From a virus (Duplodnaviria > Caudoviricetes), in the IMG/VR virus record IMGVR_UViG_3300005512_000066, positions 1 to 46,344 of that record: a stretch of 46,344 nt of DNA. One strand, 5' to 3'. A program made the translations under genes and the position numbers. The stretch's first letter is position 1, and each line of letters begins with the position of its first letter. Below are positions 32,322 through 43,295 of this stretch, one piece after another. The notes under the pieces were generated by a model that was not told the origin of the DNA, searched no databases, and was given only the letters and a program-made list of their open reading frames with translations.

Positions 32322-34481
32322 TTATCCTACAAATACATCAGTGCTATTTCTTATAATCGGCTCCAGAGAATAGCGTAATGCATCAATACAGTTTGAAACA
32401 ACCACCCCATTGGCAAGAGAAAAACACCCGTCACCGGGAACCGTCACGCAATAAGTTTCTTTTTCTTGCATTCCCTTTTGCTGAACATCCTTTACCGCAA
32501 TATATTTTTTTGGCGTATTTATTTGATTTAAATATTTCGCCACAGAACTCACATGTTTTTTTAATGTCATCGACTCCTGAATCCCTTCTCCATTTGGATT
32601 TACATTTGTTTGAGCAAAATACATTGGTTTTATCGACTTGGGCATAAAATGTTTCTCTGCATTGCTTGCAATTTCTGTATTCCCTGGCAAATAATTTGTC
32701 TTTGTGTTTTTGATAATGTTGCTTATGCCATTCGTGGCCATCATTTGATTTATGCCACTCTCTGCATTTGTCTTGATTCTTAGCAAGATTAATTCTTGCA
32801 GCGTCCGGATTGTTTGCATGATATAATTTTGTATGATATGCGATATGTTCGCCAGCTGTGAGTATAATAAGATTTTCAATCTCATTATTATCCGCATTAT
32901 GATCTCGGTGATGAATATGGAATCCTTCTGGTATTTCTCCGTGATGATATTCCCATACTTTTCTATGTATTCTGTCGCATCCGTAATTAGTCCCAAATGA
33001 GTAGTATTTTTCTCCTTCATGTTTTGTGTATATTCTTCCATTAAATTCCTGTTTTGTCCCTGAAATAACATTGATTTGCATAATAATTGCCCTTTTAAAT
33101 CCTTTGCTTGAACCCATTGACCATCTTTAGTCAGGAATTCATGGTCTTCGGTCACGCTTATTATTGTATCATCATCAAGTATTAAATCAAGTAACTTATC
33201 GCATCTAACTACCCCACCATTGTAGTAAAACTTATTGCTCCCGTCATAACCTCGTATAAATCCAGTTTTTGGTATCTCATCAAAACGCATTAATTTGTCA
33301 TTAACAATTACTTCAGTGTCCCCACTAAAACAATGATTGTTAGCATCTATAATTTGGGGAAGTATATCACCAGTTAGCCGGTCAACTTTATAAGAATATA
33401 ATCGAGTTTCTTTTATCGTTTCTTCGCACCTGGGATGGATAAATATTTTTTTATATGATCGCAAATGTGAAATACCGTCTTCAACACTGCCAGCCCACTT
33501 TTTAACTGGCCTGACATTTAACTTGCCTTTATTATTTAAATGGCTTATAGATTCTGGTCTTGCTGAATCTGCTCTGATAGTGTGATTGACTATATCTGGG
33601 ATTTTCTTAATAAAAAATTCTGTTGTATCATCTAATTCTAATCCAACTTTACCTGCATCATAATCAATATAAAGATTATCATTAAATACCCAACATCTGA
33701 CCACTGTTGTGGGGTCTTGAGAAAAACCGAAGTCCATTCCATAGTAGGGTCCATCCCAATGATCACTTGATTTAAATTCTTTTATTTCAACTTTACCATG
33801 TAGGACTTGAGCATTAGAGTTTTCTAAGTACGCTCCTTCCCAGATATGGCTATAAGTATTAGGATCTAATCTTTCCTGCTCTCTTTTTCGTAGTTTTTCT
33901 AACCCTGTAGGAAAAAATGGATTGTCGTACCAATTAACTTCGGCTATAGCTAAATCTTTTGGTGGTTTAATCCTGAATCGTTTATCAACTGGTGACTCTT
34001 TTGTTCTAGGGTTCCATATCACCCAGCATTCTGATTTAGGTTGTCTGAAAATAGTTGCTTCTAAATCTAACCATGCTTGCTCTGGTACATCTTCTGCTTC
34101 TTCAATAATAGTTAAATCAATATTTGCTAAAGACTTAACTGCTGATGTATTTCTATGTAGGCCTCTAAAAATAAATTCAGTGCCATTAGAACCTCTTAAA
34201 TAGTCAACTCCAACATTATAATGATCTTTGAGAAAATCATAAGAGTCAATTGCTGCTTTTAATTCAGCATGGAAAGATTCTTTGATTGAAGTCTGGAACT
34301 CTCTAACACATAAAATTCTGATAGGTTCAGCGTATCCATGAACAGCTGCCATTAAAGCGAAAGAGAAAGACTTTCCTGAGCCCCTACCACCGAAAGCAGC
34401 TCTGTATTGAACATCTCCCCTTGGTATTACTAAAATATCAGATATTTTAGCAGGGAAATCAATCTCGGTCTTTTCTTCCAT
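32322..34481 (-). CDS. terL: Terminase large subunit (PBSX family) containing an intein
   Basis: GGRGSGKS Walker A, IIEEAE Walker B, WNP, GMDFGFSQDP, ADSARPE and NH|CIDALRY. Confidence 0.95.
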   Translation of the reverse strand: MEEKTEIDFPAKISDILVIPRGDVQYRAAFGGRGSGKSFSFALMAAVHGYAEPIRILCVREFQTSIKESFHAELKAAIDSYDFLKDHYNVGVDYLRGSNGTEFIFRGLHRNTSAVKSLANIDLTIIEEAEDVPEQAWLDLEATIFRQPKSECWVIWNPRTKESPVDKRFRIKPPKDLAIAEVNWYDNPFFPTGLEKLRKREQERLDPNTYSHIWEGAYLENSNAQVLHGKVEIKEFKSSDHWDGPYYGMDFGFSQDPTTVVRCWVFNDNLYIDYDAGKVGLELDDTTEFFIKKIPDIVNHTIRADSARPESISHLNNKGKLNVRPVKKWAGSVEDGISHLRSYKKIFIHPRCEETIKETRLYSYKVDRLTGDILPQIIDANNHCFSGDTEVIVNDKLMRFDEIPKTGFIRGYDGSNKFYYNGGVVRCDKLLDLILDDDTIISVTEDHEFLTKDGQWVQAKDLKGQLLCKSMLFQGQNRNLMEEYTQNMKEKNTTHLGLITDATEYIEKYGNIITEKYQKDSIFITEIIMRIIMRLKILLYSQLANISHIIQNYIMQTIRTLQELILLRIKTNAESGINQMMATNGISNIIKNTKTNYLPGNTEIASNAEKHFMPKSIKPMYFAQTNVNPNGEGIQESMTLKKHVSSVAKYLNQINTPKKYIAVKDVQQKGMQEKETYCVTVPGDGCFSLANGVVVSNCIDALRYSLEPIIRNSTDVFVG
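32391..33332 (-). mobile_element. Intein (314 aa) in the TerL nuclease domain
   Basis: Block A CFSGDT, block B VTEDHEF, block F TYCVTVPGDGCF, block G NGVVVSN, +1 Cys. Removal restores DANNHCIDALRY. Confidence 0.92.
32431..33081 (-). CDS. HNH homing endonuclease nested in the -1 frame inside the intein
   Basis: IHRKVWEYHHGEIPEGFHIHHRDHNADNNEIENL (HNH_3 type) plus two CxxC...FCSxxC zinc fingers. AAAGGG lies upstream of the ATG at 33081. Confidence 0.88.
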   Translation of the reverse strand: MQINVISGTKQEFNGRIYTKHEGEKYYSFGTNYGCDRIHRKVWEYHHGEIPEGFHIHHRDHNADNNEIENLIILTAGEHIAYHTKLYHANNPDAARINLAKNQDKCREWHKSNDGHEWHKQHYQKHKDKLFAREYRNCKQCRETFYAQVDKTNVFCSNKCKSKWRRDSGVDDIKKTCEFCGEIFKSNKYAKKIYCGKGCSAKGNARKRNLLRDGSR

Positions 34482-37629: not shown

Positions 37630-37665
<36 letters not shown>

Positions 37666-37795: not shown

Positions 37796-37840
37796 CTTAG
37801 CTATACTTAGCTATACTTAGCTATACTTAGCTATACTTAG
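37796..37840. repeat. 4.5 tandem copies of CTATACTTAG (iteron-like)
   Basis: Direct reading. Confidence 0.95.
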
Positions 37841-38269
37841 TATGCTAGATAGTGACTTGCAAACGTATTGCAAAATCACTATCTATCACGATATAACATA
37901 ATTAAATAAAAATCAATAAATTCTTTTATATTTACTGAAGTTTCTTAAAAATATAAAGCTTTCCTTTAAGCTACCATGCGCAGTAGCGTGGGGATAAATG
38001 ATTTTACGATTGACCTAATGAGGTCTTGGAAAAACAGTTTTGCAATGGGATTAAAATGTCATGTAGAATGGTCATAAATAAGAGTCTTTTAATGTTTATA
38101 ATCAATGGTTTGGTCGCTTTGATTATAACATAAAAAGAACTCTTATTCTCTTTTATCTTGTTGTTTTTAAAGAAAATATTGCACTTTTTAACTCAGAAAA
38201 GTGAATAAAATAAGAACTGAGAATAGTTTTATAAAACTAAAAATCTTGAATATTAGAGATTGCTAATAT

Positions 38270-38563
38270 TCAAGATTTTAATAATCTCCTAGCAGCCCTT
38301 GGCAGGGCTGTTTTACCGAACATGGTGCAGTAATATACCGAGCCATCTATAGCTTCATTAATCTGCGGCCGCCCGTCTTGTTCCCATTGAATTTCCCATA
38401 CGGGCTTTTTCTGAGCTTTGGCTGCTTCTTCTATCTGGGCCTTATATGCTGCGGCCTTTACGGCCTGTTCAGCTTCAAGTTGATACCTTCCAGTGACAGA
38501 TTTGTCCCTAAAGTAAACAACCCCATCACCAGCAACCCCTTTTTCTTCTCTTATGTCAGCCAT
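38270..38563 (-). CDS. Hypothetical early protein
   Basis: AGGGG RBS and a sigma70-like promoter upstream. Confidence 0.65.
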   Translation of the reverse strand: MADIREEKGVAGDGVVYFRDKSVTGRYQLEAEQAVKAAAYKAQIEEAAKAQKKPVWEIQWEQDGRPQINEAIDGSVYYCTMFGKTALPRAARRLLKS

Positions 38564-41868: not shown

Positions 41869-42321
41869 TTATTCCCGTATTTTTTTTTGCTTTTGTTTTT
41901 CATTTATTAAAGATTGTCTTTTCATGACTATGCGCGCCGATTCCAATTCATTGTTTTTTGATTCATTAATCGGTTGATTTTTACTTAATTTCAAAGCACG
42001 CTTTAATTTTTTATCAGCGGAGTTCATGTAAGATTCTATATACTTGGCGTTTTCACTCGGCAATAAAATTTTGTAATCACCTTTATATTGAGTGAACGCT
42101 TTACCTTCATCGAGTAGGATATTTCTTACATAATCAGTAACAGAAAGCATCCGTAAGTCAATATCTTTAAACTCTTGATGCGTTCCAACTTCCGGATATT
42201 CCACTCCTATAACACCGTGGATTTCCAGAGCTGGAATTACAGATCCATAATCTGTCAGCCCTTTTGATCTGAGATAGGCTAGTAATTCCTTGCCTATCTG
42301 TGTTGATGATTTATTTTCCAT
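41869..42321 (-). CDS. Hypothetical protein downstream of the pentamer array (putative partner of the RAMP-like gene)
   Basis: 150 aa, AAGGTG RBS; YGSVIP...VRNILLDEGK....GDYKILLPSE followed by a helical C-terminus. Confidence 0.75.
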   Translation of the reverse strand: MENKSSTQIGKELLAYLRSKGLTDYGSVIPALEIHGVIGVEYPEVGTHQEFKDIDLRMLSVTDYVRNILLDEGKAFTQYKGDYKILLPSENAKYIESYMNSADKKLKRALKLSKNQPINESKNNELESARIVMKRQSLINEKQKQKKIRE

Positions 42322-42332
42322 TTTTTTATTTA

Positions 42333-42640
42333 CACCTTTTAAAATTGTTTATAAAAGTCGTTTCTTTGCTTTGATCTACTCTGCCTTGCATTGCCTTGCA
42401 TTGCCCTGCCTTGCTTTGCCTTGCTCTGAAGTTTAAAAAACTTCGCTTAACCAACTATTGCTAATTGGCTAAACGCTGTTCTTTGAAATGCCTTGCCATG
42501 CATTGCCTTGCGCTGCCTTGCCTTGCTCTGAAGTTTAAAAAACTTCGCTTAACCAACTATTGCTAATTGGCTAAACGCTGTTCTTTGAAATGCCTTGCCT
42601 TGCCTTGCCTTGCGCTGCCTTGCCTTGCCTTGCCTCCTGA
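42333..42640 (-). ncRNA. Structured repeat array: three (GCA-NN)n tracts separated by identical hairpin spacers
   Basis: Tracts at 42591-42633, 42489-42526 and 42362-42424. Identical 63-nt spacers at 42528-42590 and 42426-42488, each with a 14-bp stem and a GCAA tetraloop. Confidence 0.75.
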
Positions 42641-42646
42641 ACTTAA

Positions 42647-43237
42647 TCAGTCAAACTCTACTAATGCCCTGCCGAAAGTCGGCCTAAAATCGCCGAATCC
42701 GCCATATTTACATGCTCGTTCCAGCATTATTTTTAAATCTCTTCCCGTTGTTACACTTTCATCAAATTCAAGTGATGATTCAAAACTCCAGTCGTGAAAT
42801 ATCGGGAAATACTTAGCTAATCTAACCTGGCCTTGAGGCAAGATCATCTTATGCCTAAACTCACTGTTTTTAACAACGTCAATCGGTCCTCTTACCATTG
42901 ATTCGTTTTTGTAATTTAACTTTATCTTAGGTTCATTCATAAATAAGCATCCTCGCATTGCTGTCTTGCTTACTTTTGATACACTAAAACTAACCTTGTT
43001 AATTGCGGCCTGTACCCATGTCGATGGTATGTATATTCCTAGATCATCGTCCCAGTAAATTTTAGAACGAATTTCTAAATCTGCCAATTCTGCATGATCT
43101 TCATCAGTTTTACTTCTTTTTGAAGTGATTGGTTTTTTTAATTTAGTGTATTTATTTAATGGGTCGGCGCATTGTGGATTATTCAACAATAGCGGGGCAA
43201 ATCCTTTTATTTTAAATTGCATTTCTGATATAGCCAT
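42647..43237 (-). CDS. RAMP/Cas7-like protein (196 aa)
   Basis: N-terminal strand FKIKGFAPLLLNN, YIPSTWVQAAI, PIFHDWSFE and a C-terminal Gly-rich loop GGFGDFRPTFGR. AAGGA RBS precedes the ATG at 43237. Confidence 0.7.
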   Translation of the reverse strand: MAISEMQFKIKGFAPLLLNNPQCADPLNKYTKLKKPITSKRSKTDEDHAELADLEIRSKIYWDDDLGIYIPSTWVQAAINKVSFSVSKVSKTAMRGCLFMNEPKIKLNYKNESMVRGPIDVVKNSEFRHKMILPQGQVRLAKYFPIFHDWSFESSLEFDESVTTGRDLKIMLERACKYGGFGDFRPTFGRALVEFD

Positions 43238-43295
43238 TTCGTTTTCCTTTTTGTTTAATAAAATAACCTTAGTATTAAGGCTAAGTTTTTTACTA

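Follow-up and report, generated by a model that had tools for sequence, protein, structure and literature searches.

How might the transcript of a phage guide array be separated into single guides? The question is raised by a locus in a stretch of DNA of 46,344 nt (positions 1 to 46,344 of IMGVR_UViG_3300005512_000066; hereafter the window), which is that of a tailed phage as it contains terminase, portal, capsid, and tape measure genes. On the minus strand of the window, a vipr gene and a vap-like gene enclose an array of pentamer tracts with a 63-nt spacer that, as the earlier note had described, is present in two identical copies with a period of 102 nt. Judged from sequence comparison, the hairpin formed by this spacer is probably a site at which host RNase III cuts the array into single guides.

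The VIPR locus and its guide code

VIPR is a phage RNA-guided DNA-silencing system (10.64898/2026.04.26.720920), and the genes of the window locus identify it almost certainly as a member. The vipr gene (42647..43237, minus strand) encodes a 196-amino-acid RAMP protein with a G-loop that aligns with the G-loop of SUSP1 Vipr. The protein matched SUSP1 Vipr (PDB 36pp) in a phmmer search with an E-value of 2.1e-30 over residues 5-193 and shares PHROG 4652 with it; Pfam gave no match for Vipr. The second gene (41869..42321, minus strand; 150 amino acids) was designated vap-like from its position 3' of the array and a weak match, with BLASTP values of 1e-6 for the correspondingly placed gene of Vibrio phage 1.266.O and 0.056 for SUSP1 Vap1, and no family from Pfam or PHROG. 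As in the type II VIPR of SUSP1, a Vipr homologue (36% identity) is encoded in a two-gene phage locus with pentamer tracts of approximately 9-14 units and repeats of roughly 100 nt. Unlike in SUSP1, the triplet is GCA and not GGY, the reader residues of Vipr differ, the array lies between vipr and vap, and a small hairpin 5' of each tract is present instead of a 40-nt pseudoknot tail.

Several other features of the window were recorded. A palindrome at 43259-43279, just 5' of the vipr start and kept in the related locus L001, is a possible operator or terminator. An AT-rich gene-free stretch (37633-37662, 37796-37840, 38077-38147, and 38240-38279) containing (TA)15, a 10-nt tandem repeat of 4.5 copies, and two long inverted repeats is possibly an origin. 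The large terminase gene (32322-34481; 719 amino acids) has an insert from approximately residue 385 to 700 and a nested same-strand ORF at 32431-33117; the ends of the insert bear what we take to be an intein-like motif.

Guide tract 1 (42589..42633) consists of nine GCA/NN pentamers, guide tract 2 (42487..42526) of eight, and guide tract 3 (42380..42424) of nine, the last being followed by four degenerate units to approximately 42360; all are on the minus strand, and GCA is kept in 26 of 26 core units. The spacer had been regarded as separate from the tracts, a distinction that did not hold: it opens with two degenerate pentamers (10 nt) that keep the phase of the tracts. Homologues were sampled as 131 related loci (all 44 viral matches, the best 80 of 111 metagenomic ones, and all 7 genomic ones, some being the same contig twice), together with two named phages. 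Most of the related loci have fixed-GCA tracts on the vipr strand. Across 1468 interior units, drawn from 299 distinct tracts in 108 loci, the triplet positions carried 1.4-1.7 bits of information, values partly built in by a tract finder that favors GCA, and the NN positions carried 0.02-0.05 bits. A GGY register was rejected because G precedes GCA in only 388 of the 1468 units, and the code of this clade is GCA/NN rather than the canonical GGY/NN. The canonical 3' tail, a pseudoknot of approximately 40 nt, was not encountered, as the tracts lead straight into the helix described below. Four clade members (L044, L054, L065, and L103) have GAA/NN in place of GCA/NN, and very long tracts of 18-26 units, some without any spacer, were seen in L037 (2291-2420 and 3057-3181) and L034 (3075-3546).

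According to the structure paper, SUSP1 Vipr reads G1, G2, and Y3 with H17, R138, and C173 (bioRxiv 10.64898/2026.04.26.720927). When 12 clade proteins were aligned with four of the GGY type, the clade showed N in place of H17; F, A, or T in place of R138; and mostly G in place of C173, from which we infer that the altered reader residues may be the cause of the altered code. The pattern CA-NN-G fits the 'YNNNG' class of non-canonical arrays (720920), and the overlap of the two spacer hairpins by one G (see below) resembles the 'staggered' arrays of 1-nt overlapping units in the legend of Fig. S18 of that preprint. In the accessible portions of their text, neither 720920 nor 10.64898/2026.10.21.760802 names GCA/NN. 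The clade may already be drawn in Fig. S18 of 720920 or Fig. S10 of 760802, and with non-canonical triplets and a 'staggered' 1-nt-overlap array already reported, it may be known in outline.

Folding and covariation of the spacer

The main hairpin of the spacer, P1, lies at 42546..42577 (copy 1) and 42444..42475 (copy 2) and has, as proposed in the earlier note, a GCAA loop on a stem of 14 bp, three of which are G-U. As minus-strand RNA, its 32 nt fold with -16.0 kcal/mol (z -7.35), a value equaled by none of 200 shuffles, and the fold is confined to this strand, the plus strand giving -2.6 kcal/mol (z -0.41). The whole spacer forms a single 21-bp helix in minus-strand RNA (-22.7 kcal/mol, z -7.36; plus strand, z -1.1), in which the two degenerate pentamers pair with a U-run to form a lower extension of P1 of 7 bp. 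In copy 1, the 5' arm of this extension at 42580..42586 is paired before cutting with 42537-42543, as indicated by the fold and by covariation in homologues, and in copy 2 the arm at 42478..42484 is paired with 42435-42441, as indicated by the fold. The G-U wobbles had been expected to become A-C mismatches on the other strand or in DNA; this is true of the opposite strand only, as DNA of the same strand keeps G-T pairs and a weak fold (-4.9 kcal/mol, z -3.6).

A second hairpin, P2, follows P1 at 42530..42546 (copy 1) and 42428..42444 (copy 2), sharing one G with it (G42444 in copy 2). In uncut RNA this stem loses to the lower extension of P1, with a pair probability of approximately 0.01 versus 0.81-0.98, and it folds in an RNA that starts at the shared G. 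Another hairpin had been noted at the end of tract 3. This AU-rich structure (42331..42360, minus strand) does cover the ribosome-binding site of the next gene, but its energy of -4.2 kcal/mol (z -0.26) is at chance level. Tracts that lie directly 5' of a vap or vipr start, without a P1, and reach into the ribosome-binding site were also observed in L001, L002, L003, L018, L020, L037, L126, and L128, the corresponding region of the window being 42322-42424; coating of such a leader tract by Vipr could autoregulate translation.

Covariation was measured by anchored counts with pair-count controls. Stems were anchored on sequence only (in-phase CG, UU, AG, and C-G/A), and the 195 matches, from 62 loci, yielded 118 distinct stems. 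Pairing in the nine free columns was found in 86% of cases versus 49% with swapped arms (maximum 53%), mutual information was highest on the diagonal, and G-U occurred 124 times versus 13 times for A-C. A gap-free MAFFT alignment of 29 stems with six-base loops (that of the window and a single representative of each of 28 Vipr clusters at 80% identity) was 88.4% paired, versus 62.3% when shuffled by arm swaps, which ignore kinship, and 39-45% in slid controls, which keep it; compensatory changes were found at 16 of 20 pairs. In the nearest distinct relative, an A-U pair is exchanged for C-G and the GCAA loop for GUAA. The lower extension of P1 also covaries, and 198 of 211 homologous hairpins fold better on the sense strand. 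Covariation among homologues is thus present and strong, and it supports both selection at the RNA level and the processing or capping role that had been suggested for the spacer from the window sequence. P2 proved to be conserved as well: when a sequence rule fixed the register, it was paired in 93% of cases versus 69% with swapped arms in 78 distinct segments. At one fixed register the result was weak (49% versus 46%) because the linker measures 3 or 4 nt. A GNRA cap, by contrast, holds for the window loop but was rejected as a conserved signal, given that only 40 of the 118 loops are GNRA and the fixed element is the UU/AG pairs below the loop. A search of Rfam returned three weak matches, all far below the gathering scores.

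Signature of a probable RNase III site and competing explanations

Three hairpins of the T7 early region, which we take to be the sites R0.5, R1.1, and R1.3, have the same geometry as P1. In the case of E. coli RNase III, determinants described in PMC1540722 are distal and proximal boxes, an 11-bp helix, a loop of dispensable sequence, and a 28-nt product. The signature was scored against these determinants, from which the preferences of the enzyme of the phage host may differ. To avoid circularity, hairpins were called without use of UU/AG; 211 of 239 anchors folded, 161 as long and 50 as short hairpins. The UU/AG distal box was found at the RNase III register in 116 of the 161 long hairpins, compared with 0-1 at offsets of 1-3 nt, and U·G occupied the lower position of the distal box (position 2) in 140. 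G-C was present at proximal position 2 (the fourth free pair) in 6 of 161, versus 39-110 at the other eight N positions. When one hairpin was taken per 70% Vipr cluster (n = 24), these figures held at 72%, 82%, and 2%.

The window site agrees with this pattern. Its distal box, UA/UG, is 11 bp from the predicted cut, A-U is found at proximal position 2, and the 21-bp fold supplies a helix of about two turns. With the cut register taken from PMC1540722 and the T7 hairpins, copy 1 (UU 42565-42566, AG 42557-42558) is predicted to be cut at 42575/42574 and 42547/42546, and copy 2 (UU 42463-42464, AG 42455-42456) at 42473/42472 and 42445/42444. With T7 early sites and the minimal substrate uR1.1 (PMC1540722) it has in common the UA/UG distal box, a helix of 11 bp that leads up to a GCAA loop, an A-U pair at proximal position 2, a G following the predicted cut in the 3' arm, and an upper stem-loop of 28 nt. 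The window stem is fully paired at the site where the T7 hairpins have an internal loop, and it differs from T7 and uR1.1 in its proximal positions 1 and 3, occupied by G·U and U-A, and in that it would separate guide RNAs rather than mRNAs. Loose distal-box hairpins were seen 6 times in 46 kb, a frequency expected by chance (shuffles, 5.0 +/- 2.5), and the case is consequently based on position and not on a single site.

P2 starts at the predicted 3'-arm cut, 10 nt after AG, in nearly all of the 78 segments; in L002 and L003 it does so although the preceding base is A. In five of 75 loci, four of them with the hairpins directly after vipr, P1 and P2 also occur 5' of the first tract, where P2 again begins 10 nt after AG. 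Such an arrangement is more in keeping with a separator than with a tail. The first tracts of the other 70 loci, the window's included, are without an upstream site. Other features depart from the determinants. UU/AG is missing in 45 of the 161 long hairpins, and the 50 of 211 that are short include examples listed without a distal box and some false calls. About a quarter (39 and 41 of 161) have G-C at proximal positions 3-4, U·U or C·U mismatches are frequent in the proximal box, and most members have C-G directly after the predicted 3'-arm cut, a pair that is a catalytic antideterminant (7-14-fold) according to PMC1540722.

In the proposed pathway, host RNase III would cut a vipr-array-vap transcript into single guides. 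The enzyme would bind the long P1 helix and cut its 3' arm 10 nt after the distal-box AG, upon which P2, whose 5' arm was paired in the lower helix before the cut, would refold and cap the 5' terminus of the next guide; P2 copy 1 would thereby cap guide 2 and P2 copy 2 would cap unit 3. A second cut, in the 5' arm, would release a 74-nt guide and a 28-nt stem-loop, while a single cut in the 3' arm would leave a 102-nt product with P1 as its 3' cap. The units of approximately 100 nt envisaged earlier would accordingly correspond to the single cut only. In the window the second cut is somewhat more likely than not, as the stem lacks an internal loop there. Across the clade, predicted products have a median length of 83 nt for two cuts or 109 nt for one (n = 144). 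Since the window has no site 5' of tract 1 and none 3' of tract 3, only unit 2 would be cut out on both sides.

Cleavage might instead be carried out by Vipr or Vap, either of which would recognize the hairpin and cut at its 3' base. Cas6, a RAMP protein, cuts CRISPR repeats at stem bases, and the junction after the P1 stem is conserved, being CGA in 115 and CGG in 51 of the 211 hairpins. Vipr is likewise a RAMP protein (10.64898/2026.04.26.720920), but the conserved pairs are RNase III determinants at the RNase III distance, the same signature recurs in the GGY clade, with a Vipr of only 36% identity, and the accessible text of the structure paper (720927) contains no RNA cleavage by Vipr. 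We therefore regard self-processing as unlikely. An intrinsic terminator or a plain stabilizing 3' tail, comparable to the SUSP1 pseudoknot and lacking a specific endonuclease site, is about equally improbable. Both P1 copies score as terminator-like with a U-rich run 3' of the stem, and published vrRNAs end in a structured 3' tail (10.64898/2026.04.26.720920). Four U's within 11 nt of the stem are nevertheless found in only 31 of 118 homologues, no promoter-like site was found between array units, and P1 and P2 precede the first tract in the five loci mentioned above; the fixed U·G/U-A register and the exclusion of G-C at one position would also be left unexplained.

The C-G pair beside the 3'-arm scissile bond and the frequent proximal-box mismatches would be accommodated if RNase III bound the hairpin with little or no cutting and other nucleases trimmed the RNA to the Vipr footprint. 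Binding without cleavage by RNase III is known (PMC1540722), and units 1 and 3 of the window require other nucleases in any case, yet the coincidence of the P2 start with the predicted cut in nearly all 78 segments, including L002 and L003, makes this explanation a poor candidate.

Two further records of the same phage (99% identity) differ from the window in tract letters and unit number, L048 having two units and L190 an extra one. Blocks of NN units are shared across the three array versions (window 42380-42633, L048:3102-3278, and L190:1-260), suggesting guide shuffling by recombination or assembly mosaics, and the AG-rich guides of the window may themselves be recombinants or assembly mosaics. 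That the duplicated spacer together with the AG-rich tracts is an assembly mosaic of a guide-variable phage population, as the differing letters and unit numbers of L048 and L190 might suggest, can be set aside as highly improbable, because the spacer is letter-identical in all three records, is present twice in L190 as well, and occurs in three copies with a compensatory change in a 93% relative, and a mosaic could touch the guide letters only and not the hairpin.

Other VIPR arrays, guide targets, and meaning

Two preprints describe SUSP1 vrRNA1 as approximately 100 nt long, with 12 repeats and a tail of approximately 40 nt with a terminal pseudoknot (10.64898/2026.04.26.720920 and.720927). 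In the canonical GGY arrays of SUSP1 (L137:1200-1360 and 2465-2783) and wV8 (L136:1170-1463 and 2701-2727), a hairpin with RNase III-type distal and proximal boxes lies 5' of every guide and 3' of most. Five RNase III-type sites are predicted around the four guides of SUSP1, where the scan also matched two coding places. Double cutting would make vrRNA1 105 nt long, 12 repeats being followed by a tail of 42 nt that stops just past the pseudoknot, a predicted size that is close to those published; the predictions for vrRNA2 and vrRNA3, 121 and 116 nt, exceed the published approximation of 100 nt, and vrRNA4 is without a 3' site. In Pseudomonas phage Medea1 a single site follows the tract; none was found after the tracts of two actinophage loci. 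The spacers of these actinophages, LittleE (L140:1070-1330 and 2561-2900) and MakoManhole (L139:2533-2740), contain no RNase III site and have motifs that presumably resemble a tRNA T-arm. This hints at tRNA-type processing of actinophage VIPR spacers; ARAGORN called no tRNA in them.

Guide targets were found at one locus only, the relative L130, which is located in a complete Azonexus genome. Its guide 1 matches its own host at 22 of 24 positions with a 1-nt skip (chance 7e-5 to 3e-4), with no match at skips of 0 or 2 nt and none for reversed patterns. Guide 2 matches at 19 of 22 positions, again with a 1-nt skip, 3.4 kb away (chance 0.02-0.07 genome-wide, 6e-5 to 2e-4 within the element). 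For these counts, two units at the end of either guide, and in guide 2 also the opening one, were dropped as structural. Both targets lie inside one integrated element encoding an integrase, replication initiators, a helicase, and HU, and the skipped base of the HU gene target is the wobble position. The element (L143:7100-16500; G001:C1 about 3002000-3011500) appears satellite-like, with no virion genes among the 12 ORFs scanned, and in this relative the 1-nt-skip DNA match to a satellite-like element resembles SUSP1. Pairing of the fixed A in a contiguous A-N-N was rejected, the skipped base being A at 2 of 11 places of the L130 target. One further match of the L130 guide in 200 family genomes, in an unrelated gene, was taken as chance.

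Searches with guides of the window, L048, L001, L128, and L133 gave no credible target. When 122 guides were compared all-against-all on 0.62 Mb, no excess over shuffled guides was found at skips of 0, 1, or 2 nt; at skip 2, five real guides and no shuffled guides matched at 85%, and none at 90%. No convincing extension came from viral scans with guides of L048 (4 and 44 stretches), L001 (31), or window tract 3 (6); the six tract-3 matches were mutually unrelated, though above the 0.25-1.9 expected. The L133 guide had one match versus two for its reversed control in 81 genomes and none in 5, and the L128 guide had none. The best match of these scans, 22 of 24 to the second L048 guide, was observed in L228; it is not significant, being expected an estimated 0.2-0.5 times among 46 seed matches. 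By analogy with the published system, Vipr would coat the GCA triplets of a released guide, leaving the NN pairs to read DNA with one base skipped, and rival elements would be silenced as in published VIPR.

In type II CRISPR, host RNase III cuts the array into unit guides at repeated structured spacers, and type I arrays are likewise cut. The window locus differs in having no tracrRNA, the duplex being an internal hairpin, and no cas genes. Taking these arrays together, we lean slightly toward a joint reading in which host RNase III would be the VIPR maturase in phages of Proteobacteria, SUSP1 included. The GCA/NN clade would then be a recoded branch with matching changes in three base-reading pockets of Vipr and with guides built in reverse, lacking a 3' pseudoknot and capped at the 5' end by a hairpin that forms on cleavage. 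In other branches the task would have gone to different host machinery or to self-cleaving elements, such as hammerheads or, in actinophages, tRNA-arm-like spacers. The term 'RNase III' occurs 0 times in three VIPR preprints, the text of 720920 makes no mention of RNase, and a literature search found no other paper on RNase III in VIPR, figures and subscription journals being outside the scope of both surveys; within the literature covered, this reading of VIPR arrays appears to be new.

The step from array to guide is not addressed in the three VIPR preprints searched, and for this step a candidate host enzyme with base-exact predicted ends is now proposed. An orthogonal VIPR code might naturally be sought in the GCA/NN clade, whose reader residues co-vary. 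If the proposed processing is true, it would provide a design rule for multiplexed guide arrays, and the silencing of satellites by these phages would depend on a host nuclease that their rivals could modulate.
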